The notes: generated by a model not told the origin, from the sequence alone. DNA of 40,613 nucleotides from Folioceros fuciformis (GCA_049999805.1 JBNGIO010006223.1:286743-327355); one strand, 5' to 3'; shown: positions 5,445-35,939, counted from the stretch's first letter. Program-made: numbers and translations.

Positions 5445-6534
5445 ATAAAGCAAATAGTTGCTCTGAAATCCTGCTTTCTCTGCGTCCCGTGCCTGTTCTG
5501 CAGCAGCTCTCTCGAACTAGTGTCAAGCATTGTGAAACCGTGAGCCACTGGTTGCACCAATAGCGGCTACTCGACCGCGTCTTGCTGCCCCGAACCAAAG
5601 CGCGCCTGTCCCCCGACGATCGAGCCTACCGATTTCATCCACGCTTACCCAGCCCGGGGCTCAGCATGTGGTGTAGCACCGAGCAACAAGGTTGTCAACA
5701 TGGTTCCACATCTGCTTGCAACCTTTTTCCAACACATCGCAGTGAACTGCTGCACCGCCATTCCTGGAAGCCGCTCCCTGGCCAGAAGGAGCAACCGCTC
5801 TTCAAGCTTACTTGCGTCACAGAATTGCAGGCAAGGTCGCAGCTTCGAAGGCTCCCTCCACGTAGGTGCTGCTACGATGGAAGCAGCCGACGTGGCTGCA
5901 ATACCCTGACGCCAACGATGAACAGAGAGAGACGGAGAGGATCCGTGTTGCGTAGCGTAGCGTAGCGGTACAGGTACCAACACACCACACCGGCCGGAAT
6001 ATCTCTAACCGGAGCACCTTCCGGTTCAGGTACGCAAACCTTCCCCGGCCTGGGTAAGGTTGGATAAGCTTAAAGAGGGGTGAGAAGGGGAGGCGGAGGC
6101 TCGCACTCATGCCAAGTCACGGGTCGGGTTGGGGTAAAAGCAACCGGAATTGCCCGGTAGTGTGGTGGAGCTACGTTTCCCTTTTTCCAGAACTCGCGTG
6201 GCGCTGTGGGGCTAACTTGTTTTTCGCTTCCCCAGATACATGTGTACACATCCTATAAATCTACCGTCGCACCTACACCTGCCGCAGTGGGTAGGGACTG
6301 TGACGAGCGCCGGCGCTGCCGAGGTATCTCCCTTCCTGCCTCACGGCTGCCTCACCTCAACGTTGCACCTCTCGCCTCGTAGTCGTGACTGCGCACCACT
6401 TTGTCGATTCGGTGTGTGTGTATTGCGTTAGGGTGGCCGCAATCCACCTTGCTTTCAACTCTTGTTTCCGTGTGTGCGCAGGAATGAGCGGCTGCTGAAC
6501 ACTACAGCACCATCACCGCACTCGGTGAACAAGC

Positions 6535-9500
6535 ATGGCCGCCGCACTGCAGCACTCGGCGGCGCTTTCTGCCGGACCGGCTGGGCTTTACCGCGGGGAC
6601 GTCTCCCGGAGTATGACCACCTCTGTGGCTACCACGTCCAGAGCTTCTCACCATATGCTGTCCCAGCCGTCCTTGTCCATTGCCCAGGGTGTGAGGGCTC
6701 ACCATGGCCCCAGGACGCTCTCAGGCGGGCGCCTCAACAAGCAAGTTAGGTCTTTTGCCAAGGCCTGGTGTTCCTCCCCTGCCTCCTCCATGCAATCGTT
6801 CTCAGGTATGCACCGGACCACACTTGTGGATACCCTAGGGGGCCGGAAGGAGAAGGATTTTCATGCCACTGTCGCCGCCCACGTCGCTGCCCCCGCTGGT
6901 CTGGACGGATCCCACCGTGGAGTTGTGGTGGCCATGTTTGAGCGCTTCACCGAGAAGGCCATCAAGGTCATCATGCTGGCGCAAGAGGAAGCTAGACGCT
7001 TGGGGCACAACTTCGTCGGGACCGAGCAAATTTTGCTTGGTTTGATTGGCGAAGGTACGGGGATTGCTGCCAAAGTCCTCAAGTCGATGGGCGTGAATTT
7101 GAAGGAAGCCCGGGTTGAGGTTGAGAAGATCATCGGACGTGGAAGTGGATTTGTTGCTGTGGAGATTCCTTTCACCCCCCGTGCGAAGCGTGTCCTTGAG
7201 CTGTCCCTAGAGGAGGCCCGGCAGCTAGGTGTGCCTTTCTTAACTCTCTAGATTTGTAGGCTGTTTTAATCTTCGTTTAAACCCTCTCTCACGTTGTGCC
7301 TTCCGCATCCTGGCAGGCCACAACTACATTGGTACAGAACATCTCTTGCTCGGCCTGCTGCGTGAAGGAGAGGGTGTGGCCGCCAGAGTTCTAGAGAACC
7401 TGGGAGCAGATTCTGGCAACATCAGAACTCAGGCAATTACTTGCCTGCTCTATGAACTAGATGATCAGAGTCTTCCTTCTCTTCCTCACGTGTGAACCAC
7501 GTCGGTCGTCTCCCTGCAGGTAATCAGAATGGTTGGAGAGAGCACTGAGGCTGTCGGCGCTGGAGTGGGACCTGGGAGCAGTGGCAGCACCAAGATGCCG
7601 ACTTTGGAGGAGTATGGAACTAACTTGACCAAGCTTGCCGAAGATGTGAGCCCTTTCACACTGTCTCTTACCGTGCACATTTTTTAACTCTCGCCATTGC
7701 ATTCGCTGCGCTACTCACACTCCAGGTCACGTGCAGGGTAAGCTCGATCCTGTTGTTGGAAGGCAAGCTCAGATCGAGCGAGTGACCCAAATTCTGGGTC
7801 GTCGGACCAAGAACAATCCTTGCCTCATTGGTGAGCCTGGCGTGGGTAAGACGGCTATTGCAGAAGGCCTGGCTCAGCGAATTGCGTCTGGGGATGTGCC
7901 GGAAACGATTGAGGGGAAAAAGGTTCATGTGATACGCCTTCTTCTTTGCGGTTGTCATTTTCTTCTTATTTTTTGTGCCTAACTGTCAGGTATGTTCAGG
8001 TTATCACCCTGGACATGGGGCTTCTTGTGGCCGGAACTAAATATCGAGGAGAATTCGAGGAGAGGCTGAAGAAGTTGATGGAGGAGATCAAACAAGCTGA
8101 TGACATAATCCTCGTCATTGATGAGGTGCATACGCTTATTGGTGCTGGTGCAGCCGAAGGCGCAATCGATGCTGCCAACATTCTAAAGCCTGCCCTTGCC
8201 CGAGGAGAACTCCAGGTAATTGTTGATCTGGTCTTGAAAAGATGTGGTCCTCCCATTGGCAATGGTGCATTCCTGGTGTATTCATTGTTGACTCATGTTG
8301 CAACACGCTGATATCTGTCTCCACAGTGTATTGGTGCCACCACTTTGGACGAATACAGGAAACATATTGAGAAGGATCCTGCATTGGAGCGGCGATTCCA
8401 GCCTGTCTTAGTTCCGGAACCAAGCGTTGACGAAACTATACAGATCTTGCACGGCTTACGAGAACGCTATGAAATCCATCATAAGCTCAGATATACTGAC
8501 GAAGCCCTAGTGGCAGCTGCCCAGCTTTCTTACCAATATATCAGGTTGATTGATAGATCTGTTATAGAATTTACCACTGTTTTGACTTCATACAAATTCC
8601 CTGCCTAAAACTGTGAAGCCATTGTCCAGTGACCGGTTCCTACCAGATAAGGCTATTGACCTTATTGATGAAGCTGGTTCACGGGTCCGACTGCGCTATG
8701 CACAGGTTAGCTGCTTTTTTGGGGTTTGTTTGCATGACTTGTCTCAGTATGCAAGTTAGTACGAGAAGACTTTGAGCAGAGGTAGTGCAGCCTTGTTTTG
8801 TGGGGGGAGCCTCGCTCGCAGGGCTTGACGAGTGTGCTATGGTCTCTGCATAGTGTCACTGACGTAAATTTAATGTGTATGCCGACAGCTCCCAGAAGAA
8901 GCTAGAGAGCTCGACAAAGAGCTGAGACAGATCACGAAGGAGAAGAATGAAGCTGTTCGTGGTCAAGATTTTGAGAAGGTACTGTTAAAGCTCTTTACAT
9001 GCTGTATACCATGTGTATCAAATATTGCATACTGATTTCTGCTGGGGTGTTGCAGGCAGGAGAGTTGCGAGATCGGGAAATGGAGTTGAAGGCCCAAATT
9101 TCAGCTATTACTGAGAAAGGCAAGGAGAAGTCAAAGGCTGAGAGTGAAGCTGGTGACACTGGCCCAACTGTCACAGAGGCAGATATCCAGCATATTGTTT
9201 CAGCATGGACTGGAATTCCTGTGGAAAAGGTTTCCACTGATGAATCCGACAGGCTGTTGAAGATGGAGGAAACTCTCCACCAGCGTGTTATAGGCCAGGA
9301 TGAAGCAGTGAAGGCAATCAGTAGGGCCATTCGCCGTGCTCGTGTGGGTCTGAAGAATCCCAACCGCCCTATTGCAAGCTTCATTTTTTCAGGTCCTACT
9401 GGTGTTGGGAAGTCTGAGCTTGCGAAGGCTTTGGCCTCTTATTACTTCGGTTCAGAAGAAGCCATGGTCAGGCTTGATATGAGTGAGTTTATGGAGAGGC

Positions 9501-10243
9501 ATACAGTGTCAAAGCTGATTGGATCACCTCCAGGTTATGTTGGTTACACGGAAGGAGGGCAGCTTACGGAAGCGGTTCGCAGACGCCCATACACAGTCGT
9601 GCTCTTTGATGAGATAGAAAAGGCTCACCCAGACGTCTTCAATATGATGTTGCAGATCTTAGAGGATGGAAGATTAACCGACAGCAAGGGCCGTACTGTC
9701 GACTTTAAAAATACCCTGTTGATAATGACTTCGAATGTCGGAAGTAGTGTGATTGAGAAGGGTGGTGGTGGAATTGGGTTCCAGCTGGATTATGGGGAGA
9801 AGGATAGCAGCTATAACAGGATCAAAAGTCTGGTGAATGAGGAACTGAAGCAGTATTTCAGGCCAGAGTTCCTGAATCGTCTGGATGAGATCATTGTGTT
9901 CCGCCAACTGACCAAGATTGAAGTCAAGGAAATTGCGGATATTATGCTGAAAGAGGTGTTTGAGCGGTTGAAAAAGAAGGAAATTGATTTGCAGGTGACT
10001 GAAAGGTTTAGAGACAGGGTTGTGGACGAAGGTTACAGTCCGAGTTATGGAGCTCGGCCCCTGCGTAGGGCAATCATGAGGCTTTTGGAGGACAGTATGG
10101 CAGAGAGAATGTTGGCAGGGGAGATCAAGGAGGGGGACTCCGCAATTATTGATGTTGATGCCGAAGGTGGTGTCATCGTGCTGAATGGGACCACCGGAAC
10201 ATCCTCAAGTACGTCCATCGAGGCTCCAGCTGGTATTGCATGA
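6535..10243 (+). CDS. clpC: Chloroplast ATP-dependent Clp protease chaperone subunit ClpC (Hsp93); 9 exons
   Basis: Transit peptide followed by [32 protein letters not shown], with Walker A motifs GEPGVGKT and GPTGVGKS and the [10 protein letters not shown] motif. Exons: 6535-7228, 7317-7432, 7520-7645, 7737-7922, 8000-8215, 8327-8544, 8630-8705, 8889-8978, 9056-10243. Confidence 0.97.
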
Positions 10244-11189
10244 GTTAACTGATAGGGAATCTATGTGTTCTTGTGCAGAGGGTTTGGCCAGCTTTGTAAA
10301 ACAGGTTGCTGTAGTGGTACTTTCCTAGGGGGGCCTGCTGCGTTTGTGATAAGTCAAATCATGGCTACCTGTAGTTTGACGTGATAAAGCAAAGGTAGGG
10401 TGTTATCATCCGCTTGTTGAGTAGGATGGCTTCTGGGATTGTTTTGCCTAACTAGGTAGCGGCAAGGAGCTGTCAAATCATTGCAGCATGATCCTTGTGT
10501 GGTTTATGATTGTAGATCTGCGGATGGTCAGACTGTAGACACGGAGACCGTTTGTGGCCTCGATTGTATTGGTACCAATTTTGGTATCCTTGGACAGAAA
10601 GACTGTCGTATCTCCTAGCAGGTTATTTGATATATACTGATCCCATGCAGAGGGGCCATTTTCTTGTCTCATTTGCACTGCGTTAACATATTGCTCCCGT
10701 ACAGAGAAGAGACTGCACTTTTGCGTCGCACGCCTCATCAAGAATAAAGAACAGATATACAAATGAGATGGAATACTTATCTCCCTTAAGTGATTCCGAA
10801 GAATCGGAAGAAGACGAATAATTTGGAGAGGGTCGAAAGTAAAACTAGTTCGAGACAGTTCCTTCGGGAAGCGCCAGGCCGAAAGTCAATGAAAAGAGGA
10901 ATTTTCCTCAGAAAGGGCAGGGCCGGAAGAAAAGTAATAATGGTTAGAAAAAAGGAGTCTCTCTGAATTTGAAAAGGATGGGTCAAAANNNNNNNNNNNN
11001 NNNNNNNNNNNNNNNNNNNNNNNNNNNNNNNNNNNNNNNNNNNNNNNNNNNNNNNNNNNNNNNNNNNNNNNNNNNNNNNNNNNNNNNNAGAAAAAAGGAG
11101 TCTCTCTGAATTTGAAAAGGATGGGTCAAAATAAAACTGATTTGGGTCGAATCTTTCCAAGTCCAAAAGAAAATGGTCGAATCTTTTCA

Positions 11190-12785
11190 AGGCCAAAAGA
11201 AAACTAACAAGAGGCATCTCTCTAGAAAGGGCTGGGCTGAAAGAAAACTATCAAGAGGGATCTCCTCTGAAAAAGGCCGGGCTCAAAGAAAACTATCAAG
11301 AGGCATATCCCCGAAAAAGGTCGGGCTTAAAAAAAATTGTCCAGAGGGATCTCCTTGGAAAAGGTCAAGCTCAAAGAAAACTATCCAAAGGGATCTCCTC
11401 CAAAGGGGCAATCCAAAGGGATCTCCTCCAAAGGGGCATGGCCCAAAGAAAACTATTAAGAGGATTACTATGAAAAAGGCCAGGCTGAAAAAAAAAACTA
11501 ATAAGAGGGGTCTCCATGGTGAAAGCTGGGCTGAAGACAAGACCTAAAGAGCTTCAAAGAAAAAAACTGGAGAGGGTTGAAAAAAAATAATCAAAAAAGG
11601 ATAATACATGAAGGGATGAGACTCTTAAAGGGTTGAAAAAAGAGACCCATAGAGGGTTGAAAGAACATAATCAAAAGGGGATAAGACATGAGGAGATGAG
11701 ACTCTTAGAGGGTTGAAAAAAAATAAACAAGAGGAATACGATTTCAAGGGAGGGGATTCTTAGAGGGGTGAAATAAAATAAACAAGAGGATAAGACCGGA
11801 GGGGACGGAGACTCGGAGAGGGTTCAAAGAAAGTAAACAAGAGAGGATAAGACTCAAGGGGACAAGACCCAAGGAGTATTGAAAAAAAATAAACAAGAAG
11901 GGATACATTCTTGGAGAGGGTTAGGTTGAAAGAAACAAACAGGAGGGGGATGAGACCCAGAGAGGACTAGGCAAACAGAAAATTAACAAGATGGGACGAG
12001 ACGTGGAAAGGGTTGCAAGAAAATAAACAACAAGGATGAGTTTTGAGGGACAAGACCTAAAGAGGCCTAGGTCGGAAAAAACAAACAAAAGGTGGACTAG
12101 ACTTGGGGAGGGCTAGGGCCAAAGAAACAAATATGGGAGAGGAGACTTGAGTGGGCAAGACTCTACGAGGGCTGAGTCGGAAGAAACAAATAAGAGATGG
12201 GCAGGGCTGAAGGAAACAAATAAGAGGGGGATAAGACCCAAAGAGGGTTGGGCCAAAGAAACAAACATGAGGCGATGAGACCCAAAGAGAGTTGGGCCAA
12301 AGAAGCAAATAGGAGGGCAATGAGACCCAAAGAGGGCGGGCCAAAAGAAACAAACAAGAGGAAGATGAGACCTAGAGAGGGCCAAGTTAACAAAAAAATA
12401 ATAGAAGGGTATGAGACCTGGAGAGGGTTGAAAGAAAATAAACAAGAGGGGATGAGACTCGGAGAGGGTTAAAAGAAAATGAACAAGAGGGATGAGACTC
12501 TAGGGGACACTAATAGGAGGGCACGAGACCCAAAAGGTTTAAAGAAAACAAACATGAGGGGATGAGACTCCATGGGACAATACCTAGAGAGAGTTGGGTA
12601 GGAAGACACAAACAAAAGGGGTACAACACCCGAAGGGGGTTGAGCAAAAAAAACAAAACAAGAGGGGACCACACCTAGAGAGGGTTGGGTTGAAAGAAAC
12701 AAACAAGAGCAAGATGAGAACAGAAGAGGGTTGGGCTAAAAGAAACAAACAAAAGAGGGATAGACTCGGAGAGGGTTGGGCCGCC
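11190..12785 (+). repeat. Degenerate tandem array of ~44-46-bp purine-rich units (roughly 35 copies)
   Basis: Left units resemble AAAGAAAACTATCAAGAGGGATCTCCTCTGAAAAAGGCCGGGCT. These grade into AAAGAAACAAACAAGAGGGGATGAGACCCAAAGAGGGTTGGGCC on the right. The ORFs here are repeat artefacts. Confidence 0.85.
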
Positions 12786-13668: not shown

Positions 13669-14513
13669 TCAGGTCTCAAACTTGCCAGCTTCGGCTCTGA
13701 AGAAAATGCCAGCGAGAGGTGGCCCGAGGTTGTAAGTGTTGATGAGATCACGGGTACTGAAAAGTAGGCGACTTGGGGGGGCCTTTACGCTTATCTTATG
13801 CGAGCCCTGCGCGCCACGAAACACACGAACATAATTCACGTGAAACTTCAGAGCTCGGTACCTATGAACATTGGTACGTATGTATCCCTAGACCTAGGCT
13901 ACCCTGCTAGGCAGTTATTAGTCTGACCTGGGTGAAGAGGAGAACGTAATAGCGGTGGACTCCCTCGGGTGGACTAGGCCCCACGTATGATACCACTTCG
14001 TCGCCCAGAAGGTGGATCTCTGTGTTCCGGTACGGGTCCAGAATGAAGCGGTGAAGCGGCAAGCAAATGCGGCATGCGCATCTACGCAGTAAGGACATAG
14101 AACTAGCCTGCGTACATACCTTGGGATTTTTTGATGGAGCCGGGAATGTTGGTTACCAGCCAATGCAACACATTGGAACGCTCAGGGTTGGTGGCACTGG
14201 GAGCGTCCGGATCCACCATGATCACCGTGAAGAAATCTCCGTCCGCAATGGCGCTGCCCTTGAAGTTGACATGAGGCTTACTCTGTGTCGCGTTTAACCC
14301 GTAAATGCGGCCCATTTTGAGCTGGTGTCCATGGAAGTAGACTTTCACCCTGGCGGAGGGAGCCCCGTACTTATCTAACCAGGGCGCCACCACCGTCTCC
14401 GACTCCACTTCCTGCACACGCAGATATTCAAACTTCGCTGCGCCCCCAGACTGACTGTAGAGTAGTAGACAGAGGACAGCCAGGAGGACACCGAGCAGCT
14501 TCCAGGAAGCCAT
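13669..14513 (-). CDS. Phosphatidylethanolamine-binding protein (PEBP) family member with an N-terminal signal peptide; 3 exons, 207 aa
   Basis: Exons 14513-14120, 14019-13928 and 13806-13669 join in frame (GT-AG). Motifs: FTVIMVDPDAPS, LHWLVTNIPG, YVGPSPPEGVHRYYVLLFTQ, FSTRDLINTYNLGPPLAGIFF. The leader is hydrophobic (MASWKLLGVLLAVLCLLLYSQSGGA). Confidence 0.9.
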
Positions 14514-15374
14514 GGCTGTCGGGAGCACACCTCCTGCTCTTGCTTTGGCGGACTGTCTCACGAGCATTCTTCAGCCTTCGTTCACTTATCCGACGACGCA
14601 AGTGACTAATATACTGTCATTGCACAATTCACACCTGTCCGGTACACAATACTGCACCTAATATAGCAGTCAGAATAAGGAGGAGGAATTTTATTTTCCC
14701 TTAGGACGGATTTCCGCCCTGGGACTGAATGGATTTTAGTACAATTTTCAGCTTCCACATCATAGGATGGGGACAAAAAGTCCGTCTCAGGGAGCTAGAG
14801 GTTATCGAGCGGCGATACACATCGTCCTCAGCCTCACGATGGCCCAACAGCATCGTAGCCCCCCTAGCTTCAAACTCGACAGATCGGACCCGTGCCTCAC
14901 CTGCAAGATGCGATAAAATCAGATCAGAACAGAGCCGGGATATGACACTATGCGCAACCCATTTTGGGTATCGTGCATACCATTCTGGCAACCATGATGA
15001 AGTCTCTTCGGGTCCAGGTAAGTTCAAGCTCAAGGACGCGGGTACCTGCATACACTTGAGGACGTGCTTGCTTGCCTGTCGAACAAAGGTCAGCGAGGAA
15101 GTCCGCACATATGATAATACCCAACCCCAACGATTCGGAACCCAAAAGCAGCACCAGGGCTCAGAGTCTATATCTATACCTCTGGTGCCGAAGCACTAGT
15201 GCCACACGTGCAAGACTTCAACGAGATAAATTTTGATCTGAATTCCTAACCAAAAACATTTTCCATCAGAAATTACCAAATCCATATACTAAGTACAGCA
15301 AAATGTGAGAAATATGCATACCGTAAGCCCTCAGCGACCACGACAGCGCAGCTTGGCAGATTGTCTCCTATGCA

Positions 15375-18300
15375 TCATCCGAGGAGCTCTTGGGAGAGCT
15401 GCTGCAGGAACCGCTGTTCCATTGAAGTTATGTGCGCCTTTCGTATCGCTTGTGGATTATGCACGTTCATCGCTGGATGTTGGAGATAACCAATAAGAGT
15501 GTTGACGCGTGCTTCATCCCCTGCCTTCTCATACATATGGACAAGAAGTTCAAGCAGTGGAACCTGCAAGGCAGAACCAAAACCCAGGCTCAGTTCGTGA
15601 ATCTAACAGATCTGTCCCGGCACGTTCTTTAAAAACGCCAAGAAGGACGTTTTGAGTGCATACCTCCCAGATACATTGGAAATATGCCGCAGCATCCTTA
15701 TCCAAAATAGGAAAATTATCTTGTAAGAAACGAAAAGCGGACTCATAGTCCGGTGGCGTGAGACATTGACACAGAATGGCAGCCTGCAGACCTGCTCCTA
15801 TCGCCCTGCACGCATTTATCATTCTTCTTATCTGTGTAGGCCAAAGAAGAACAATTTTTCAGTTTCTTGACAACACAGCATATACCAGCGACTGCCATGG
15901 TAGAACGTACCACTTCCTGAGTAAAAATGTTGTCCGGCATGCAGGAACTGGAATCACAGTAGTGTGCGCTCCTGATGGCACCTGCCTGCCACAACTTTCC
16001 CACACAATCTGTTAACACGTCACAGAATCTGAACAACATTCCGTCGACCATCGGCAGTTGCTCAGTGTCCAAACAAGGTGAATCATTGGCACTCATATTA
16101 CAGTGAGAGAAGATGGATAGAACACCTGAAGGTAAAGCTGCAAAGCCTTCACATAGAATTCATCTTCATAAGCCAAATCAGCAAGACCTTGCAGCCAGCA
16201 ATGTCCCCTCTCCTTACCTCCTTCCGGTTCTCCTGGCAAAGCCACAATGCCCTCTAACAAAACCCTGAACAAGTCCCTACCAAACTCAGGCGAGACCTTG
16301 GGCAGCACAGGTCGGTAAATCGCAGCAGCATGGGGTAAGGACCCAATAGGAGGAGGCAGCGAAGCTCCTCCTGTCACTGCCGCAAGGACCCCGTACCTGT
16401 CAACAGCTGGGGCCCACGGTGTCAAGCCTGCAGCATTGCATCTCCGAAGCCAACCTGCTGTCAAGCTAGCCAATCTCGTGAGCACTGCTGGATTTTGCAC
16501 CCTTGATAGAAGGGGCACACCTTTTGCACCAGGATATACTGGCTTCAACATGGAATCCTCGCCTCCTTGGATTGAGCTACTAACCTCCACCCCGACAAGA
16601 AGACACAAAAAATCTTCAAAACGTTGCCACAAAGTAGATCCAAATCTGCTTGCCTCCTCGTTAGACTGGTTCCTAGAAGCAGCTGCTTCACAGAGTGGCA
16701 TCAAGTCGCCCAAAGCCGTGGCCACCCTCATTGTTTGTAGTTGCTTCCTGTAGCTAGCTAGCATGTCAGCATGGGCAAACACCATACTAGGATCCCCCTC
16801 TAGGGATACTGTTCGGACTTTGCTTTCTTGTCCCTCACCCTGAAACTTCTGAGGCCCTCGTTCTGGATGTGAAATCTCCTTATGCAGTATTGTACACCAC
16901 TGACAAAACTCCCTTAAGTAAACCCAGAATTCCTTGTCTATAAGACTTAAAATGACGTACTCCACAAGGTGAGAACTAGAAAGAAAACAAGTTTTGAAAC
17001 TTTTAGGAAGCCCTTCACAACGGTTGTCTGTTCCGACACTTTTTGATGGCATCAGCTTCTCCACTAACCATAGCATTACATCACTATCAAAATCACCGGG
17101 ATCACAAACTTTTGCTAATTGATACAACCGCTTTGCTATCCCTACCTCCTTCATATTCTCTAAGGCATCAAACGCTCTCTGCCTCAAGATACCAGCCATG
17201 CTTGCTGTGAGAGTTTCTTGGTTTCCATCAGCTGAATCCCTACACATAGCACAAAGTTCTGTTTCACTACCTTCCTGAAACTGACATGAGCAAGTCATGC
17301 ACTGTTTGCTGAACACCTCATTTTCTGCATTCAAGCGTCCCTTGTTATCAACAGCTTGTGTACTTAAAAACATCTTGGCATCTGATACAATTGCTTCCAC
17401 TTCTAAAAGAGAGTCAGCTTGAACTAGTGCGAACATAACTCGCCCCTTAAAGATATCTGGATCTAAATCTGAAGTCCCAAACCTCAACCTTTCTTGGCTT
17501 GACAATCCACCTGCATCATGCATCTTAGCACCCTGTGGACCAATTGCGGCGCTGTGTTCCCAGTTTTCCACAGAGGTGCTGTCTCCGCACAATCCAGCGA
17601 GACCGTCAGGTAAGGTGAAGCCAATGGAAGTTGCTAACGCCCAGCACCAGGGCTGATCAATAATACAACAAGCGTAGATAGCCAGCTCATCCATCCGCTG
17701 AGCCAGCAAGTTGCCCTCCAAAACTCCCTGTGACATTTCATCTACTCCATGCGTGAGAAACTGCTGTGCTAATCGACCTCCTTTGCTTGCACCCCTTCTC
17801 ACACATCTAACAGTTCTTTTCGAAGGTTTTACTTCCAGCCGTCTTGCAGAGAACACAAGCTTGAGAAAGAACTCCATGCCAACCTCGCTATGTTCAAAGC
17901 GGTTGCTAACACGGAGGAATGACTCCACCGGAGCTCCTTCAAGAACACTGCGTACAATATTACAGCCTGCAAGTTGGCATTGTACGGAGGCTGGAAGGTT
18001 TGGATCCTTTTCGACGGACAGCACGTAGCCCCAAGATAAAAATCCATTGGGAAGGTCCTCCACAAACGTTTGAACAATCTCCTTCCACGCTACTGACTGT
18101 AGGCTCTTGGCAGCACTAAAAGCATCTTTGGTCTCTGGCTGCAATATATTTTGACCCACCCGCTGACTTGTAGCATCTCTCGGATCAACTATATGAGCAA
18201 CTTCAGTCCCCTCTGCTGCTGGACAGGGTACAGGGTGGTCACCCTGACTTTCCTGAGAACATCCAAGAACAGGGCAGCTCACTTCCAAGAAGTCTTCTGA

Positions 18301-20957
18301 CACTTGCCCATCAACTGCACTAGGTGGAGTTCCAGTTACATCTTCCATGTCCCCTGGGCCCTGAGTCTGACTCATCTGGTCTAGTAGCAGCAATTCCAAT
18401 TTCCTCCTCTTAGGCACGGATGTCTCTGACTCCCTTTCATCAGCAGACCTTTTGGTTCTAAAGCCTAATTCCTTGGAAGGTTCAGTCACGGACAGAGGAT
18501 TGTGCAGTCCTTGCTTCTCAGTCGAAAGTCCTCTCCCACTTTCCCTTGCAAGCCATCTACTCTGCTCACAGGCTATGACAGCCAATTGAGAAGGAGTTGG
18601 AGCCCCGAGTTCGGGTAGCGGGGAAGCTGTGATATTTATCGTGCTATCCTTGTCACCGTTTGGAGAGGTTGCTTTAGCCAGCAGCATTCTACAGGCTATT
18701 ATAAAGCCGACCAACCTATCCTCCTGGGCTCCTACCTGTCTTTGCTTGCTAAACCCAATTTGGACATCCGAAGACGATGCAAAAAGCTGTCCACACTTTG
18801 TAAAAATTTCATGAGCTCTTGCAATTCGCCCCCTCATGAAATGAGACTCAGCAACATCGAATAATGCTTTGCATTGGTAATCAATGCTGAAAAACTGCGA
18901 CTTCTTCACAGGACCTCCATTTTCAACATTTGGAGGCTCGTCAACACTATCCTCTTTCAAAGGCTGGATATCACAATGATTCTCATCTTCACAGAAAACT
19001 CGTTCCAAAAAACGAACTGAAAAACTTTCCTCCTCTGTAATGGAATCACCCGTGGCTCTGGTAGACACAAGATCAACAACTCCTGGTCTTGGAGCCTTAA
19101 ACATGTCTGCAAGATCGTCAAATGATTGCAGATTTGCAGCATGCAGTGAGTTGTGGATACGCCACCTATGAAGATTGCACTCATGCACTGGCAATCTGGA
19201 TTGGTCATGCTCCATTAGTGCTCTCAATAAAAGATACTGATGTTGTTGGGAAGATATCAAGGACTCAATATCTGAAAGTGACAGGTTCGCAGCAACAGCT
19301 ACTCTCGCTGATCTTTCACATAACAAGGCCATAGTTTTGACCACAGTTTTACTCGTCCCATTCACTGCAGTCTGGCCATCCTATAACAGAGAACCAACCA
19401 TACGCAAAGTGTCAGGACAATGCAGGTCATGCAGATTCACGCAGTTCAGGGAAGTTTATTTGGTGAAATAATCTGGCATAGGGGTTGATAGCAGCCAGCA
19501 AGGTCACGACGTAAACTCATCCATTCTTTTGGACTCATACATGTACCTCATTCAACATTACCTCGATCCTCCCCATTGACCTACGAGTTGTCACAGATCA
19601 TCAGCATTTAAACCCGACGAAAATAGCAGCATGCAACAATAAGTCAAATTATATGTCAATGATTTTAGATGAAGATTCTGCACTCGACTCGTGCCTGCCA
19701 GACAAATGTGCATGGCCTGGATGAGTCCCCAGCAGCGGGTTCAAAGTTCTTCCCTCCACACCTTGGGCAAACTGCCCAACATACAAGCCATGAAGTGAGA
19801 ATATTGTTCTGACGAAAATCCCAAACCCCTTTCTCAGTGAACGATAATCTCACAAAAAAGCATAACACTGGCAGATAACTGCCAGGATGATGCCGCAGTA
19901 ATCTTGGAGGTAGGGGAATATCCTGGAGTGCGAAAGGTCGACTCCTCGTGGCTCTTCCTCCCCACAAGCCCTTCGGCTTCTCCTGGACATCAAAACTTAC
20001 CTTAGACTCCCATAGCGACTGACAGACACTCTGTAGCGAGAGATTCACAGAATCTAACACTGACTGCTCACAAAAGAGACACGTTATAACCTACCTGTGC
20101 CTTGACTGTCAGCTTGCCAACTGACAATCCTTTTGCTACCAGCAGGTGAACGAGAGGAGAGACATACGAGCAAAATCCTTCTGATAGTGCACGCAATTGT
20201 GCAGTGACTTATCCACACTCTTGTGGAAAAGCTTACAGACTTCGAAAACGAATTTCTGTTGACGAGGACCTTCAGAGCCACAAAGTCAGTTCGCCTGAAA
20301 TTCGCTTAAAGAAACAGGTCTGCGGGGGTGGAAGAAGATGAAAAGACACAGCGGCGGTCACTTTCGTTCTTGTCCTGAGGTTTCACTTCATTTTCCAACA
20401 ATAGAGGCTGAGACGGGAGGCATCAAGGCGACCGGGCACCGTCCCTACCAGCTAGCAAGGAGTTGCGGAGAGCAGAGAGAAGTCCGGAATTGGGGAGCAA
20501 TGGAGACACAGCGGCAGCAGACTAGGATCCGGGAAACTCGCTGGCTAAAAGAGGAAAGGACCGACAGGGGCGGGGTTGAACGAGCAGCTATCAGCACAAG
20601 TTGAATGCAACGTAGAGAAGCAGCAATTTGAAGTAAACAGTGCCGGATCTGCAAGAGGAGGGGAAATGAGGAAGGGAAGGAAATGGCAATGAAGAATATA
20701 AATAACACACATACCCCGTCCTTGGAGACCGAGGAGCCGCTGGCACTGGCAAGTGCCGCCTTGTGGTTGACCAGCACCTGGTCCAAGAACATGGTGATCA
20801 AATCGGCAGGAAGGGGCCCGTCCAGCGAGCCAGAAGCTAGGCCTGCCAAATGGTCCTCCAGCTTGTCGGGGAGGAGAACGAAATCTATCCATAACGACGC
20901 CAATGCGGCGTCTGTCGAGGGTCGAGCGCGGTCGCGATCCCTTTCGCGTTCGCCCAT
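15375..20957 (-). CDS. INTS8: Integrator complex subunit 8 homolog; 5 exons
   Basis: Exons 20957-20715, 19380-16126, 15985-15911, 15831-15664 and 15563-15375, all phase 0. The N-terminal WIDFVLLPDKLEDHL...PLPADLITMFLDQ resembles metazoan WFEFLL..LLEKHL..PAPVQLIVQFLEQ. The C-terminal FTQEVIRRMINAC...AAILCQCL..DYESAFRFLQ...YFQCIWEVPLLELL...MNVHNP...RFLQQLSQ resembles the INTS8 C-terminus (recalled, not searched). Confidence 0.8.
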
Positions 20958-21537: not shown

Positions 21538-24264
21538 ATTTATTTATTTATTTATTTATCATTAGGCGTATGCAGCCGTGAGGCTATAACGCCGAAACTG
21601 AATCCAAAACATGATGGAATGGACACTTTGGGAAAGCGCAAAAGAAAGAGGATTAGAGCAAACAAAATAGCAAAACTAGATAGCTATGTCAATAAGCCTA
21701 AGTTAAGTAATCGCCAATCGCCTTGAAGTAAGAGAGAAGGTTTTCCCTGAGTTTGGGAACACTAAGAAGTTGGCGGATATCGTAATAAGAGCCTTGAAAC
21801 ATCTGGATCCAAGTGTTGCGAGTGGCCATACACTGGCCAAGGATGTGGTGACGAGTTTCTTCCGAAGACCTGCATTTCCGACAAAATGGATCTTCTTCAA
21901 TGTTGAATCTCCTAAAGTAAGCCCTAATAGCCATATGCCCAGTCCGAAGCTAGGTGAGAAATGATAAGAGCTTACGGTCATGGAGACCAAGGCGTTGTAG
22001 CACCGAGACCAAAGGGCCACCAAGCACCACCCTCTTAAGCGCAGAAGCCTTAGTTGAGGAAACCCACCGTAAACGCCACTCATGTAGACTTGCAGCATGA
22101 ATTTGCTGGCGAGCTCTGGACACTGATAGGATCCGGTCTTCGCGGGAAATGGGAAGAAGAGTGGCAGCCTTGGCGGTTACATCTGCATTCTCATTACCAA
22201 CAATATTATGATGGCTCGGAATCCGGTGGAGATTAAGGGAAACCTCTGGATAAGCTACCGAGAAGGCATGGAAAGATGTTCTAGCCTGGAAAGACATGGC
22301 TTGGGCTGGGCGAGCCAAAGTGTCCGTTAAAGACATGATAGCTATTTGATTAGCAAGGAAAATTGTAACTGACGAAATCCTGGGGATGGAAGCAAAGAGG
22401 GTGGGCAAGCATGAAATTGCTTTGACCACAGAGAGGAGTTCTGCCTCATAAACCCCGTAGTATGTTTCTAAACCAAAAGATAATTGATGGACAATATTCC
22501 CTTTGAAGTAGAAAACAGCCATGCCCCCGGCATGACCATTTAGAAGAGAACCATCAGTGTAAATGGCAAGGGCATCAGGAGTCAAAAGATGTAGGGAATA
22601 TGAGGCAATAGCCGAAGTGGGAGATTGTAAAATTACGATGGTTGTGGGTAAAGAAAGAGGAGAGGTACATGGAGGCATGAGTCGAGGAAAAATAGTCTCA
22701 ATAACAGTGGAGGTGGGCAGTCCTAAAGCGGAGTACAGAGTACTAGGGGAAAGGAGTATGAGACGACTGCGGATAGCATTGTGGTAGCGTTTTTTGTAGT
22801 TAGTCATAGGAAGAAAGACTTGATGGATGGGGTGAGAGGGAGGGCAGGAGACGTTGCGGAGGAGAGAACGGAGAGAATGGCGTTAGAGGCTCAACTCCGT
22901 GGGCAGAAGAAAAGCTTCAAATTCCAGGGCATCAGTGGAGGTAGTTCGAAACGCACCAATAATGGCCCTACAGGCAAGACGTTGGACCCGTTGGAAGTGT
23001 TGAATGTGTGTACGACCTCCGTTGAACCTGACATTGCAGCCGTAATCGAGCTTGGGCAGGACGACACTGATGTATAAATGTCGAAGAAGCTTAGTATTGA
23101 GGCCCCAAACTAAATTCCCAAGAGAGATTATAGCTGACAAAGTACGCATTGCGGAAGCCCAAACCTGATGAACATGCGTGTTCCAAGTTAACTTGGAATT
23201 CAAATAGAAGCCCAAAAACCTAATACACTCGGAGAGAGTGATAAGGGAACCATCGGGTAACGAAAGAGTACATTCCTTTGTTGATTCCTTACGCTTCAGG
23301 GAAAAATGAATAAGTTCAAACTTGTTAGAATCGAACTCCACGAGGTGCGTAGAGGCCCACTCCGATGCCACACGAAGCCTGAAGTTCTTTTGGCATGAAG
23401 GAGCAATGACATATGGCCCCATGTCATCAATCCAGCCAGTGCTACCACCCATGGTTTGAAGTTGAGTGATGAGATCAGAAGTGAAGAATAGGAAAAGAAT
23501 AGGCGAGATTGGCGAACCCTGGGGTAACCCACAACTGATGGGAGCAAGAGTGTCAGGTTGACCATCCAGGCAAAGGGACGTCGCCCACTGAGACAGAAAG
23601 TGGAAGACCCAATGGAGCAGCGGAGTTGGAAGGCCTTTTTTGCACATGACAGATAAGAGAATTTGATGGTTAAGTGAGTCATATGCACCTTTGATATCCA
23701 TGAGGAGCAAGGAGAGAACATGTCGTTGACCCCAAGCCCTACAGATATCCTGAACAAGGAGAGCTACTGCATCGCTTGTACTCCGACCCGGCCAACCCCC
23801 CAAATGACTGGAGGGAAGGAGACCATGATTGTTCTCAACCAAGAAGGAGAGACGTGAAGCCATAAAACCCTCCAGGGCCTTGCCTAAGCAATTAAGAAGA
23901 GCAATAGGGCAATATGAGAGGGGTAACGAATAATTGGCCCGATTGAGTTTACGGAGAATGATGGTGAGCGAGTGAAGCCACGTCAAAGAATGATAACCCA
24001 GAGTGGAGCAAGCTTGGAAGATATATAAGTAAAATTGTTTGAGGAGGTCCCAACCCCTCTGAAGAAAACCTGCAGCAATGGTGTCCAGGCCTGCCGCTTT
24101 CTAGGCCATCGTACCAAAGAGAGCCTGCTGCACCTCGTGCAAAGCAGGGGTGGGCCATGGGAAATGGGAAGCAGCGGACGGGGGAAGAGGAGGGGTGTCT
24201 GAAGAAGAGGGAATAAAGCAAAACGGAGGACTGCACACTTGGCAGCATGAGAGTAAGCAAGGTG
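21538..24264 (-). mobile_element. 5'-truncated non-LTR retrotransposon (LINE, Tad/I-like: RT + RNase H + CCHC), decayed, with 16-bp TSD
   Basis: RT motifs: YCPIALLNCLGKALE, LLMDIKGAYD, GLPQGSPISPILF, WIDD, RFLG. RNase H motifs: IYTDGS, YEAEL, IPSHHNIVGNENAD. CCHC knuckle: CRKC...TRHHILGQC. It ends in a (TAAA)n 3' tail, and TTTTCCGGTGAAGGTT flanks it at 21522-21537 and 24265-24280. Stops and frameshifts are present. Confidence 0.93.
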
Positions 24265-29787: not shown

Positions 29788-32412
29788 ATGAAGCTTGTGA
29801 AACAGGATTTCAGGCCAGGAGAATCTGGCTATGTGCAGGTTACTTTGTACAATATATTTGTGGGCGATTCCGTCTCTGTTTTGCCCTACGATTGCTCGCT
29901 CACGTGCACAGCTTATGCATGCAGGTTTTGCCTGAGGAGTCTGATGATCTATGGCATGTGTACAACTTGATCAACAAGGGGGACGTCGTCTCCGCCGTAA
30001 CAGTCAGGTGAACGAGTGGTAGGGGGGGAAGCTGATATCGTAATCATTTCCATCGTCTGAAATTGTTCAACCCTCACTGACAGGAAGATCCACAAGGAAA
30101 CCTCCTCCGGAGCCAATGACTCGGAGCGTATTCGAATTAGGCTTGGAGTGGAGGTTGAGGTTCGTTGTGCTCTCGAAGGGAGCAAATTGCTTCACTGCCA
30201 GTGACTGCAACCCCTAGAATATGAATTTGAGCAGAGTTCATCTGAATTTTTGCAGAGCGTGGATTACGACAACGTGGCAGCTGTTCTCCGCGTCCGTGGG
30301 AAGAACATCACCGAAAACGATCACGTCAAGGTATGCGAATGCTTAAGGGGCCTGCCTTCCCCTTTCTTGTACGCTGGACCTCTAAGGGAGGTAACATGGA
30401 GTCAAACCTTTTTGCAGCTGGGAGCGTATCATACCCTAGAGATCGAACAAAAACGAACCCTTTCCATACGAAAGGTAGGTTTTAGGTCCGTGGCTTAGTG
30501 CCTTAGCTTTGATTCCTTTTTCTCTCTTGTTTTCTTTTTTTCTTTTTCTGCATGGAAGGGGCCGAAGTGCAGCGTTGCAGTTCAGTACGTGGTATTTGTT
30601 ACATCGCAATCTGTAGGCTGTCTGGGATTCTTTCGCCACAGAAACCCTCACGCAAGCTTGTGGTAAGTTGTTTCTCGTCCCTAGGTCATACACCTCTTGT
30701 GGCCGGGTGGGTATGAGCGTGTTCATTCAGGCGATCCATGCTATGCTCTGATACTGTGCAGATGCTGCGGCCAGTGCCGACTTGGCGGCCTTGATGATGC
30801 AGGAGGGCCTAGCAAACCTGTGTCTTATAGGATCCAGGTACGTTTTGGGAAACAAAACCAGGTATGGATTTTTTTGTTTCTTTCGATTTGTATGATTGGA
30901 TGATGGGTATTATCCCACCTGCCGGCGTTGCCTGTGAGTTTGGCAGTATAACTACTGTGAAAGCTCGAGTGGAAACATCGATACCACGAAAACGAGGCCC
31001 AGCTATTGCGGGTTATGACAAGGTTAGGGATGTACAAGAGGTGGATGTGGTGATGCCTGACAGAGTGGTTAATGGTGTGTGTGTGTGTGTGGCAAATTTT
31101 GTTTGGGCGCAGTAAGTAAGGTGTGGGCTGTTGTTGCCGTTGGCAGGCATTGAGCGGGTTCTTCAAGAATGTACTTCAGGTACAAAAGACTGTGATGAAG
31201 TGATTTGGTTTGCAGGACACGAGAGCAGTGGTGACGATAACAGTGTGACAACAGGCTGTTGTGCTCCACGTGGATTTTGCGGTGGTACGATGTTTGATCA
31301 TAGCAAGTCCAGGGTTCACCAAGGTAGGACACGTTGTGGTAAAGGGTTAAGATGCGGATGCAGGTGCAGTTTGTGTTGGGAAAGTTGAGCAGGAAGGAGT
31401 GTTTGGTGTTGGATGGAAGTTCAGGATCAGTTCTATGAGTATATGCTGTTGGAAGCCTCGAGACGAGATTTGCGTGCCGTGATAGAGAACAAGTCGAAGA
31501 TTCTGTTAAGTCATGCGTCATCTGGCTACAAGTAGGTAGAGCGTGCGTGTGGGGAAGAAAATGATTGGAACAAGAGTTTATTGCAGTATGTGCAGCTGAC
31601 AAGAGAGCAAGAATGTAGCATGGTGAGATGGTGATATTAAGTTGAAGTGTGGAAAACGTGCAGACACGCACTGAAGGAGTTGCTGGCGTCCCCTGCAATC
31701 ATGATGCAGGTGAAGGATACAAAGGCAGCCAAGGAGGTAGAGGCATGGTTGTGGTGTGGTGTGGTGAAAGTTAGGAAGAAAGATGGGAGAGCGAAATGGT
31801 GATCGGCTGAGGAGTGTGTTAATGTGCAGGTGAAGGCACTGGATGATTTCTATAAAATGCTTTCGTCCGTAAGTATTTGTGAAATTGAAAAAGGGGAAGG
31901 GGCGTAGAGGAGAGAGAAAGGGGGGCAAGGTGATAGTGTTGGGAGGGTTGTGGTGGCAGGAACCAAGTCGTGCGTTTTATGGGCCTCGCCATGTGGAGGC
32001 TGCACAGGAGCAGGGGGCGGTGCAGACGTTGCTGATTTCTGACGAGCTGTTGAGGTAAGTATTGGGACAGTGGTCGGTCGGGTTGTGGTGAAAGGAAAAG
32101 GAGGGCAATGAAGTTGCGTAGTGATTTGGAGCGTGTTTTGGTTGGCAGAAACTGTGATGTGGTGACCCGGCGGAAGTATGTGACGCTGGTGGATTCGGTG
32201 AAGGAGCTGGGCGGTGCGGCGTACGTGTTTTCTTCGCAGCATGTGTCTGGAGAACGTAAGTTATTGTTTGAGGAGGAAAGGTTGCAGGGAAGTTGGGCGG
32301 CTGGCCCAAGGTGATTTTGCTTGGGTGGGCTGTGACAGAGCTGGGACAGCTAACGGGCATAGCTGCAATTTTGAGGTTTCCTTTGCCGGATTTGGAGGAC
32401 ATGGAGTTGTGA
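29788..32412 (+). CDS. PELO: PELOTA/Dom34 ribosome-rescue factor (eRF1 family); 16 short exons
   Basis: Spliced translation: MKLVKQDF...[25 protein letters not shown]...[25 protein letters not shown]...[11 protein letters not shown]...IPRKRG...[12 protein letters not shown]...HASSGYKHALKE...RAFYGPRHV...LLISDELLR...[33 protein letters not shown]. Confidence 0.95.
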
Positions 32413-32493
32413 AGGCAGGATTGATGGGGAGGGGGTGCGCGGAAGCCGTAGTGTTATATGGGAGTTGAGGAATGTGGAGGCCTGAGCTGAGCC

Positions 32494-35245
32494 GGGCAGG
32501 GCAGGGCAGGGCAGGGCAGGGCAGGGCAGGGCAGGGCAGGGCAGGGCAGGGCAGGGCCAGCTGACGTGAGGCGAGGGCAGGCGACCCCCGCGGCGAGACA
32601 ACGGGTCTGGTGAGGGCTGCTGGTGAATAGAACTGAAGCTGAGGGTGATTCGGCGTGGGGAGAGAGGAGGTGAAGGGCAGTGTGCAGTGGCCTGGCGCCG
32701 CGTTCCGCCAAGCTTTCCAACGACATCCCAACTCCCTTGCATGTTTCCGTTTCCACGAGCATCCATATCCATCCATCCAGAGACGGACGACGGGGTTCCG
32801 TTGGGCGAGTAGGTTGTGTAGGTAGGTAGGTGAGAAGTTGGCGGTGGCACGCAGGTAGCTAGGGTTTGCTTTGCTTGTAGCTGTAGCTGGATTTGTGAAG
32901 CTGGGTGTGGCTGTGGCTGTGGCTGGGGCTGGTGCTGTGGGTTGTGTGCTCCTGCTTTGGCCAGGCCATTGGTGCCCTGCAAGCAGCGGCTTGCTGCCAA
33001 TGGGAGAGCAGTGTTTGTTAACTTGGCTCCTTTTGCCACAGCACGGGTTGACATTGACGTGGATAACAAGGCAATGGTGGAAGTTGGTGTTAGCAGGCTG
33101 CCTCGGCCCTCCATCCGGAGTCGAGTCCGGCCAGGCAATGGTTGCCTTGGAGTCTGTGCCTGTAGCGTGAAGTGGCCGGGCTCGGCCGGGCCCGGCCTGG
33201 CCTGGCGTGATCTGACCTTTCTGTGCCTCTGCCACGCAAAATCCAAGCTGGCCCCGGCTTGGCCGGATGCAACAGCAAACCATGTGTGTACACGTGTATG
33301 AAAGGTTAGTACGGTACGTCATGGTATGGTAGCGAGCGGAGGGAGAATACTTATGTAATTGTTGTCTAGTTTACGGTACGTATGTATGTTGGCTTGTATA
33401 ACGCTGTGTTAGTGCTAAGTATGGAGGTACATGTACGCATTTCCGATGTTGGAGTAGAATGTGGGAAGGGAATGCAAAGGAGGGGAAAGTGGGTGTAGGT
33501 AGGACATGTACGGTTTCGGAAGGGAAGAAGGAGCGGGGAAAGAGGGTGAAGGGAAGAGGAAGAGGACGAGGAAGAGGAAGAGGGAGAGGGAGAGGGAGAG
33601 GGAGAGGGAGAGGAAGAGGAAGAGGAAGAGGAAGAGGAAGAGGGAGAGGGAGAGGGAGACGGAGGGGGAGGGGGAGAAGGAGAGGGAGAAGGTGCCTTCC
33701 TTTTTGGCCTCAAGGTTGGGTGGTGATGCAAGCCAAGACGGGAATCTTGGAGTGCGGTCTTAGTGGTGGCCCCACAGGCGTTCCGGTTAGTGTCAGACAG
33801 ACATGTGCGGACGAGACGGGACGGGACGAAGCGGAGCGAAAGGGAACGGGACGGGACGGGACGNNNNNNNNNNCGGGACGGGACGAAGCGGAGCGAAAGG
33901 GAACGGGACGGGACGGGACGGAATAGGGATGGGAATGGCGCGAGTTGCCTGTGCCTGGTGTCTGGTGGCTGGCCCTCCTTGCCATGGCCATACCGGAGCC
34001 GGTAATGGCCACACAGAAGAGAAGACACTGGTGCTCGTGCGCACGTGTTTGCGTTCGCAGGGGGACCCGGCTTATCCGGGGCCCCGGGCCCCCTCTGGAG
34101 GCACCCGTCACCGGAAGGAAGGAAGGAGCAGGTGATATATACTGTGTACGGTCACAGTTGGCAAGCCCCAAAGCACAGAAAGCTTACAAGAGAAGCAGAC
34201 CCGGAGGAGACTGGAGCCCCTGCTCTCCTCTTCTCTGCTCGGCGCTGCAGCCGGGAGGAGGGGAGAGGAGAGGCGGGGAGGCCGGGAGGTGGGGAGGCGA
34301 GGAGGCGGGGTGGCCAGGTCTGGGGAGGTGCAGCCTGCAAGTGTCCGCAGCGCAGTGCAGCGCAGCGCAGCGCAGAGAAGTGCAGCGCAGTGCAGTGCAG
34401 TGCGCCCATGCGATGCGATGCGATACCCCTCCTTTGCGATTTATTAGGTAGGTGCAACTGGCAGATCTAGAGTGTCAGTCGGGCCACACATGCGCTGCAT
34501 TAATGGCGGTGCGGCAGGAAACGGGGGCGGGACCCAATGTGACGGAACGGAACACAACACAACTCAACACAACGGCATCCTTACCCGCCTCCCCAGATCC
34601 CGGATCGCTCCCGCTCCTTTCAGACATGCATGCAGCACTCGCTAGTCTGTATGGCCAAAGCGGTGCCTACACACTTCGGATTTCCATTGCCCCACATTTA
34701 CTAGCTTCACCGCCCACGCCCTCGCTACTGTATATGTACATTTGTATATCATCTGTACCTACTGTACATACATAGCTGTGGATGCGTATTTATCGTTATT
34801 CACCGAGAGCCCAGTGGGCGGTGAGCAGAAAAAGGCTGCGTGGCCAGCTCATAAATGCAACTGGTCGGAGTTTTACGCATCTGCGTGAGTGACGCCCAGA
34901 GGCACATGGCCGGACTCGACTTCTGAGTCGCTCCTTTGTTGCCTTGTGCAAGGACGGAGTGGCATGAGGAGGAGCAGCCAGCATCCTTTGAGGTCCCAGG
35001 GCCTATTAGGGGAGTGGGGAGTGGGGAGTGGGGAGTGGGGAGTGGGCACTGGGCGCTGGGCACTGGGCACCGGGACTCCGACTCTCAGAGACTCTCCGAC
35101 TCCGACTCCCCGACTCGGACTCGAACTAGGAGCTGCAGCCGGACCTGGACCTGGGCCTGGGACTGGGACCTACGACCTGGGACCTGCGACCCGGGACCTG
35201 GACCTGGACGGACCCTACTGCTGCCCTGCCCTGCCCTGCCCTGCC
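32494..35245. repeat. Cluster of G-rich and C-rich simple repeats
   Basis: (GGGCA)~12 at 32494-32557; (GAGGAA/GAGAGG)n at ~33553-33690; (GGGAC)n at ~33817-33920; (GCAGT/GCAGC)n at ~34345-34405; (GGGGAGT)5 at 35009-35043; (CTGGGAC/CTGGAC)n at ~35140-35210; (CTGCC)5 at 35221-35245. Confidence 0.9.
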
Positions 35246-35939
35246 AAGCCCACTCCCTCNNNNNNNNNNNNNNNNNNNNNNNNNNNNNNNNNNNNNNNNN
35301 NNNNNNNNNNNNNNNNNNNNNNNNNNNNNNNNNNNNNNNNNNNNNNNNNNNNNNNNNNNCTTCCATCTTCCTTCTCCTTCTGCCTTCTCTTCGTCCTCCT
35401 CCTTCCTCTCTATCCCCCCTTCCTCTTCCTTCCTCTCAGCTCTCTGCAGCGTGTAGCGCTTCGGCACGCGACTTGTAAGGACAACAGTCGCAGCAGGGCC
35501 CCCAACCAAGCCGGATCCGCGCACCGCGGCTGCTGCCCGACCGCTAGATCGCCAGATCTACACCTGCTGCACCGAGCAGCTACCTAACCAGAGGCAACAG
35601 GCAAGAAGCGCGAGGCAAAGAGGTAACGCTTGCACCCCCAAGCTGCTGCATTTGCGCATCCTTTGCTACCTGCTCCTCCTCCCACTGCTCGCCAGCTAGC
35701 ATTGCCATCACTGAGGCTTTCTGCCGCCCTGCTCTGCTGTGCAGATGACCCTGTGCTCCTCCTGCCCCTTCCTCAGCGCGCCTCCAGGTTGCTTCCGCCA
35801 CCATACTCCACGCCCATCCGCGCCATCCAATGCCGCCTGCCGCCCGCACTAGCATAAGATTTGCTGCCTCTGCCTCGGCGCCACACCTCCAGGCTGATTG
35901 CGAGCTTCCGGCGTGGATGCTCCCAATTTGCTGCCGGAG

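Follow-up and report, generated by a model that had tools for sequence, protein, structure and literature searches.

In animals, the association of Integrator with PP2A is a central brake on early elongation by RNA polymerase II (Pol II). As described in the available parts of the papers cited throughout this report, PP2A is bound and positioned towards the Pol II C-terminal domain (CTD) by INTS2, 5, 6, and 8 (PMC11062913), INTS5 is the main co-purification partner of INTS8 (PMC7980224), the Integrator/PP2A association falls on INTS8 depletion (bioRxiv 10.1101/2020.07.12.199372), and changing the WFEF motif of INTS8 to alanine mimics the loss of INTS8 or PP2A (reviewed in PMC8091971). In plants, the only Integrator described is a reduced one oriented to small nuclear RNA (snRNA), and NELF is lacking (PMC7244574, PMC8091971). 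The Arabidopsis DSP1 complex is composed of DSP1-4 and CPSF73-I, and DSP1, 2, 3, and 4 are homologous to INT7, 3, 4, and 9, respectively (PMC5079582). A 2023 review calls the Arabidopsis complex a 'smaller version' of Integrator (PMC10533338). In dsp1 and dsp4 mutants, short promoter-proximal RNAs are reduced (PMC7244574). Here I report a gene in a 40,613-nucleotide stretch of DNA from Folioceros fuciformis (JBNGIO010006223.1:286743-327355; the whole stretch is called the window) that, judging from its similarity to profiles and relatives, almost certainly encodes an orthologue of INTS8 in a bryophyte-grade land plant. By homology, its product would belong to the same machine as the DSP1 complex. 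Unlike it, the DSP1 complex was described without INT8/INTS8, in agreement with an earlier reading of the window made from the DNA letters only (the sequence-only reading); the names INT8, INTS8, INT5, and INT6 occur 0 times in the available part of that paper (PMC5079582).

The gene lies on the minus strand (20957..15375) and has five exons. When the sequence was read and the exons were assembled by coordinates, a coding sequence of 3930 nucleotides was obtained, which is translated into 1309 amino acids with one stop codon, the terminal one. The sequence-only reading had announced a clean five-exon open reading frame (ORF) of about 1,300 amino acids at exactly these coordinates, and start, end, exon number, and length all agree. 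All four introns have GT..AG ends and are in phase 0. Two runs were compared with the locus. Run X1 comes from the same organism (it contains 92% of the words sampled from the locus; all 7 aligned pieces at least 99% identical), and run X2 comes from a related organism (about 7-11% of the aligned letters differ from the window). Both runs are labelled only 'RNA? (a guess)', and their RNA origin is taken from spliced joints. Introns 2, 3, and 4 are spliced in contigs of both X1 and X2, with 140, 79, and 100 nucleotides skipped and CT..AC ends on the plus strand. Since the contigs join exactly across introns 2-4, X1 and X2 derive from spliced RNA. The features of the gene are as follows.

20957-20715, minus strand: exon 1, 81 amino acids; ATG at 20957, donor GT at 20714-20713; it holds the conserved N-terminal block and is spanned by an X1 contig (20713-21038).

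20894-20778, minus strand: extended N-terminal block, LWIDFVLLPDKLEDHL...PADLITMFLDQ, residues 22-60, from the alignment with 14 plant and algal orthologues.

20891-20880, minus strand: WIDF motif, residues 23-26, codons TGG ATA GAT TTT.

20714-19381, minus strand: intron 1, 1334 nucleotides; it holds an alternatively used exon (20269-20095) and an alternative acceptor before 19982.

19380-16126, minus strand: exon 2, 1085 amino acids; the helical-repeat body with long low-confidence inserts, in a stop-to-stop ORF (16093-19380); an X1 contig (16125-19981) is identical.

15985-15911, minus strand: exon 3, 25 amino acids (AGAIRSAHYC...); joints skipping 140 and 79 nucleotides in X1 and X2; it aligns to human 'LQAGAVCSDFF'.

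15831-15664, minus strand: exon 4, 56 amino acids; part of the TPR_INTS8 domain.

15563-15375, minus strand: exon 5, 62 amino acids and TGA; the C-terminal end of TPR_INTS8; joint skipping 100 nucleotides in X1 and X2.

The identity of the protein is clearest at its C-terminus. The stop-to-stop frame around exon 4 (15550-15858) matches the Pfam family PF25756 (TPR_INTS8) at E 4.1e-15 (55.9 bits, cut-off 27; profile positions 374-430 of 488). For the one around exon 5 (15375-15602), the match has E 4.9e-8 (32.6 bits, cut-off 27; positions 429-486 of 488). Five plant and algal relatives match PF25756 at E 8.8e-23 to 4.5e-37 (81-128 bits). In the Pfam scan, no generic TPR family was matched at E 1 or below by any of the five window pieces, and in the relatives the generic TPR_2/7/12 families stay below threshold (16.7-18.4 bits against cut-offs of 27-30). 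A profile search had been proposed beforehand for telling INTS8 from a generic TPR protein, and it was the INTS8 family that passed the threshold and no generic one. For the exon 2 body, the local Pfam library gave nothing better than DUF7575 at a chance-level E of 0.23, and the best ESM Atlas score of this body, 0.77, belongs to an uninformative cluster.

In PDB searches, for which the orthologue P0004 and the profile A1 stood in for the spliced window protein, human INTS8 was the sole distinct sequence matched (E 5e-26 for the Riccia orthologue and 2.1e-31 for the bryophyte profile of seven sequences). The similarity to human INTS8 is made up of four collinear stretches that extend over residues 1 to 991: one is the N-terminal block, two are central, and the last covers 160 residues at the C-terminus. 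Outside these 160 residues it is weak (single stretches at E 0.5 to 620). Window exon 1 alone gave only chance matches in the PDB (frataxin, E 0.95). Only full-length orthologues bring the N-terminal homology to light. Exon 2, modelled by AlphaFold2 from a 23-row alignment, consists of helices only, with a mean predicted local distance difference test (pLDDT) score of 63.1, a predicted template modelling score (pTM) of 0.44, and 411 of 1095 residues below 50. In a Foldseek search with this model, the five best PDB matches all belong to Integrator entries (chains 9eof_F, 7pks_h, 8rc4_h, 7ycx_H, and 7cun_H; E 1.3e-5 to 2.5e-2, probability 1.00). Of these, 7cun_H is identified as INTS8, and the other four are assigned by their chain letters and lengths; the sixth match drops to E 0.044 and probability 0.47. 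The domain matches in exons 4 and 5, the PDB match, and the fold search all support the INTS8 assignment made in the sequence-only reading.

Compared with the X2 relative, 26 of 37 coding differences fall at third codon positions (binomial p 5e-6, from the first 40 of 330 differences). Judging from this third-position excess, the INTS8 gene is under purifying selection. The spliced 1309-amino-acid protein is intact, selectively constrained, and all-helical, and its C-terminus is the INTS8-specific TPR domain. The junction of exons 1 and 2 ('...SVSKDG/DGQTAVNG...') aligns without gaps to annotated bryophyte proteins, and this alignment supports the canonical junction. It also rules out an exon missed within intron 1.

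Is the N-terminus of this protein comparable to that of animal INTS8? It reads ...ASLWIDFVLLPDKLEDHL..., in the same letters (WIDFVL..KLEDHL) that the sequence-only reading had given for the N-terminus. When aligned via orthologues (HMMER; bryophyte 'WIDFLLLP.KLEEHL' versus human 'WFEFLLEESLLEKHL'), WIDF is the positional counterpart of human WFEF, and the extended block aligns to human INTS8 residues about 20-58 ('...VQLIVQFLEQA'). WIDF or WIDY is present in all 14 plant and algal aligned sequences that possess an N-terminus. A wider set was formed by the 89 homologues of at least 800 amino acids drawn from the best 150 of 334 profile matches, P0002-P0017, four cluster members, and P0209. In 70 of the 89, the first 120 residues contain the pattern W-x-[DE]-[FYW]-hydrophobic-hydrophobic, as WFEF in 35, WIDF in 12, WIDY in 8, and other forms in 15. 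In 200 shuffles of these 120-residue segments, the 89 sequences produced 0.14 matches on average and never more than 2, and beyond residue 120 there are 0 matches in 82,801 residues. Several of the 19 homologues without the motif are N-terminally truncated or have near-variants. The N-terminus thus carries a family-wide W-x-[D/E]-[F/Y]-L-L...L-E-x-H-L...L-I-x-x-F-L block, of which the animal WFEF is one variant. The motif is the ancestral INTS8 N-terminus, common to amoebozoan, ichthyosporean, algal, plant, and animal-type homologues. The earlier claim of a retained WFEF-like motif therefore holds as to position, while the motif is not special to this lineage.

Conservation is uneven along the protein. 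Exon 1 is 48-53% identical to its liverwort and moss orthologues over 75-79 aligned residues, versus 34-38% for exon 2, and exons 3-5 are 62-68% identical. Exon 2 has low-pLDDT inserts at its residues 288-417, 517-552, 593-633, and 682-717, which are 16-26% identical to the orthologues. Human INTS8 (PDB 7CUN chain H; identical in 7PKS, 7YCX, 8RBX, 8RBZ, 8RC4, 8YJB, and 9EOF) was taken as the reference. The two proteins share the collinear W-x-[D/E]-F-L-L...H-L...L-I-x-x-F-L-[E/D]-Q block, the central 'aCN.VR..leG', the C-terminal TPR_INTS8, and, according to the model, an all-helical repeat fold. They differ in the motif (WIDF in the window, WFEF in human) and in length (1309 versus 995 amino acids); the roughly 300 extra residues are low-confidence, poorly conserved inserts between helical blocks.

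The closer comparison is with bryophyte and lycophyte INTS8 proteins (Riccia, Marchantia paleacea, Calypogeia, Sphagnum, Ceratodon, Physcomitrium, Selaginella, and Diphasiastrum). The window protein resembles them in architecture, in length class (970-1465 amino acids), and in the WIDF/WIDY/WIEF block, but it is only 31-38% identical to them overall, and 45% to P0002. These proteins carry the precomputed Pfam pair PF25756 and PF26725, and the UniRef automatic name 'INTS8 TPR repeats domain-containing protein' is already attached to them. Thus, the window gene adds a member to an already named family. In the literature searched, no experimental study of the bryophyte or lycophyte proteins was found, and the listings named no publication that deals with INTS8 or an Integrator-PP2A complex in plants.

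By analogy with animals, the following explanation of the whole is favoured with moderate confidence. The plant INTS8 orthologue would pair with INTS5 in the Integrator core. Its N-terminal block, with INTS2/5/6, would position a PP2A A/C core free of the B subunit. PP2A so positioned would dephosphorylate the Pol II CTD and oppose release into productive elongation. The lineage would then have an attenuation arm like that of the Integrator-PP2A complex (INTAC) beside the snRNA-processing nuclease module. Taken by itself, the reading of plant INTS8 as part of a PP2A module is plausible, with a chance that I would put at even or slightly better.

Several points weigh against this explanation. 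The motif lies within a hydrophobic-periodic block at the extreme N-terminus, and its conservation may reflect helix packing instead of PP2A contact. Two of its four residues are unlike the animal form (I for F and D for E). The fold matches were obtained at low template modelling (TM) scores (0.19-0.26) with a model of pTM 0.44. The canonical join of exons 1 and 2 (20715/19380) is found only in one 57-nucleotide contig of X2, besides homology; this contig has 25-26 letters on each side and falls short of the joint criterion of 31 letters per side. The X1 contigs leaving exon 1 all join 20715/20269 and 20095/19982 and then run unspliced through 19380. This alternative form stops after 188 amino acids, so that the WIDF exon is uncoupled from the rest. 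Finally, P0002, the closest relative, lacks the N-terminal block as predicted.

The first of these points may be taken to mean that the gene encodes a true INTS8 orthologue that is a structural Integrator subunit only (for example, in snRNA 3′-end formation or termination), its W-x-D-F block stabilising the fold and recruiting no PP2A in plants. The conservation indeed extends over the whole of a longer hydrophobic-periodic segment, in which the motif lies. The plant Integrator work, in the available parts of three papers (PMC5079582, PMC7244574, PMC10533338), covers snRNA processing and short promoter-proximal RNAs with no mention of a phosphatase. Moreover, since plants lack NELF, animal-style pause control need not apply in plants. 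However, homologues from amoebozoans to animals have the motif conserved at one fixed position, conservation is higher in exon 1 than in the protein body, and the same four residues are required for PP2A-dependent repression in animals (PMC8091971). I regard a purely structural role as unlikely, though it is the strongest of the alternatives.

The transcript data might instead indicate that the main product in this species lacks the WIDF exon, starting at a downstream methionine, or that the transcript is mostly non-productive and contains a stop; the motif would then be irrelevant here. The alternative X1 joins and the unspliced exon 2 acceptor leave, after the early stop, a separate downstream ORF of 1212 amino acids that starts with MALLCERS..., and the predicted P0002 likewise begins just before the LLCERAARVAV block. 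However, contigs prove presence, not absence. Unspliced pieces across introns 1 and 2 also occur in X1 (records 2 and 4), and thus immature RNA or DNA is present in that run. The sequence of exon 1 shows strong conservation, and its junction aligns in frame and gap-free to the orthologues; the contig of the X2 relative has the canonical join; and P0002, encoded on a contig of 4.9 kb, may be no more than a truncated prediction. A product without the motif is therefore improbable. The reading as a generic TPR or helical-repeat protein without relation to Integrator, which the unmatched exon 2 body and the low TM scores might suggest, was refuted as far as sequence evidence goes by the Pfam and PDB results, in which the INTS8-specific family was found twice, no generic one reached threshold, and human INTS8 was the only PDB sequence matched, while among the listed profile matches the organism-named ones are annotated INTS8 or carry TPR_INTS8; its probability is negligible.

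How widely is the INTS8 orthologue with the putative PP2A-recruiting block distributed in plants? A word-indexed search with exon 2 found 7 proteins, those with names being all from bryophytes (the best 42% identical). A 7-sequence profile found 16 proteins, adding Marchantia paleacea, Diphasiastrum, and Selaginella. HMMER, run exhaustively with a profile of six sequences (1148 positions), found 334 proteins at E 1e-3 or below, 174 at 1e-10 or below, and 32 at 1e-30 or below. For the organism survey, the best 150 of the 334 matches were considered and 30 of the 150 were looked up, which gave 13 clusters with an organism name. These are from mosses and a lycophyte (Sphagnum, Physcomitrium, and Selaginella), streptophyte algae (Mesotaenium, Spirogloea, Closterium, and Chlorokybus), a chlorophyte (Cymbomonas), and other eukaryotes (Pelomyxa, Tieghemostelium, Chromosphaera, a fish, and an annelid). 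A word search that started from the C-terminus of the Diphasiastrum protein found 17 proteins, only from bryophytes, lycophytes, and Mesotaenium. No fern or seed-plant INTS8 was present among the organism-named matches of any search, where the intermediate matches P0014, P0017, P0019, P0022, and others are without names and could be from ferns or hornworts; the NCBI and UniRef sources are rich in fern and seed-plant proteomes. Orthologues throughout angiosperms, which the sequence-only reading had named as a finding that would speak against it, likewise did not appear among the organism-named matches.

In a FastTree tree of 25 chosen rows, with a midpoint root only and several long branches flagged, the window protein pairs with P0002 on a separate branch (support 100) whose sister group is the liverwort clade (support 95), and the pair is nested in a group of land plants and zygnematophytes. 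Since the protein has its own branch with P0002, it belongs to none of the named bryophyte and lycophyte genera. Its grouping with bryophytes suits the early land plant that had been proposed from the DNA letters. In the same searches, moss INTS8 fragments (P0018, P0021, and cluster members, from metagenome assemblies) were 91-96% identical to Sphagnum INTS8 under the source name 'phage gp36-like protein', which looks like a source annotation error.

The INTS8 gene itself is an ordinary conserved gene of the housekeeping type; its apparent restriction to non-seed plants, as suggested by the protein searches, is the part worth following. The locus contributes two things. In non-seed plants, selection maintains an INTS8 subunit whose N-terminal motif is intact and for which a role with PP2A may be expected by homology to animals, and no organism-named seed-plant homologue was found in the protein searches. 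Did the seed-plant lineage lose the phosphatase arm? It can be proposed, tentatively and with more doubt than belief, that INTS8 and a PP2A-recruiting Integrator arm are ancestral in eukaryotes, were kept in green algae, bryophytes, and lycophytes, and disappeared no later than the origin of seed plants. On this view, the 'smaller' Arabidopsis Integrator would be derived, and non-seed plants would run an animal-like Integrator-PP2A attenuation although plants lack NELF. The Marchantia and Physcomitrium orthologues are tractable systems for Integrator-PP2A function without NELF.

The surroundings of the INTS8 gene are mixed. About 1 kb upstream of its start codon, a retroelement remnant lies on the minus strand, with an RNase_H ORF (21950-22882) and an RVT_1 ORF (22883-24100). 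Directly downstream, also on the minus strand, an ORF of the phosphatidylethanolamine-binding protein (PEBP) family (14103-14570; PF01161, E 1.3e-8) has a hydrophobic N-terminal leader. Pieces of a gene for an AAA+ chaperone of the ClpB/Hsp100 type are found on the plus strand at 6529-10243 (Clp_N at 6529-7251; AAA_2 and ClpB_D2-small at 8975-10243). Purine-rich degenerate tandem repeats with periods of 28-110 nucleotides occupy 11145-12760, and the AT skew is 0.44 and the GC skew is 0.30-0.37 over 11-13 kb. The region 31000-37000 is GC-rich (0.57-0.62 from 32 kb on) with a strong reversal of the GC skew. It has long ORFs on both strands, which gave no Pfam matches, and simple repeats of GGGCA (x12.8 at 32494) and AGAGGG (x24.5 at 33541).

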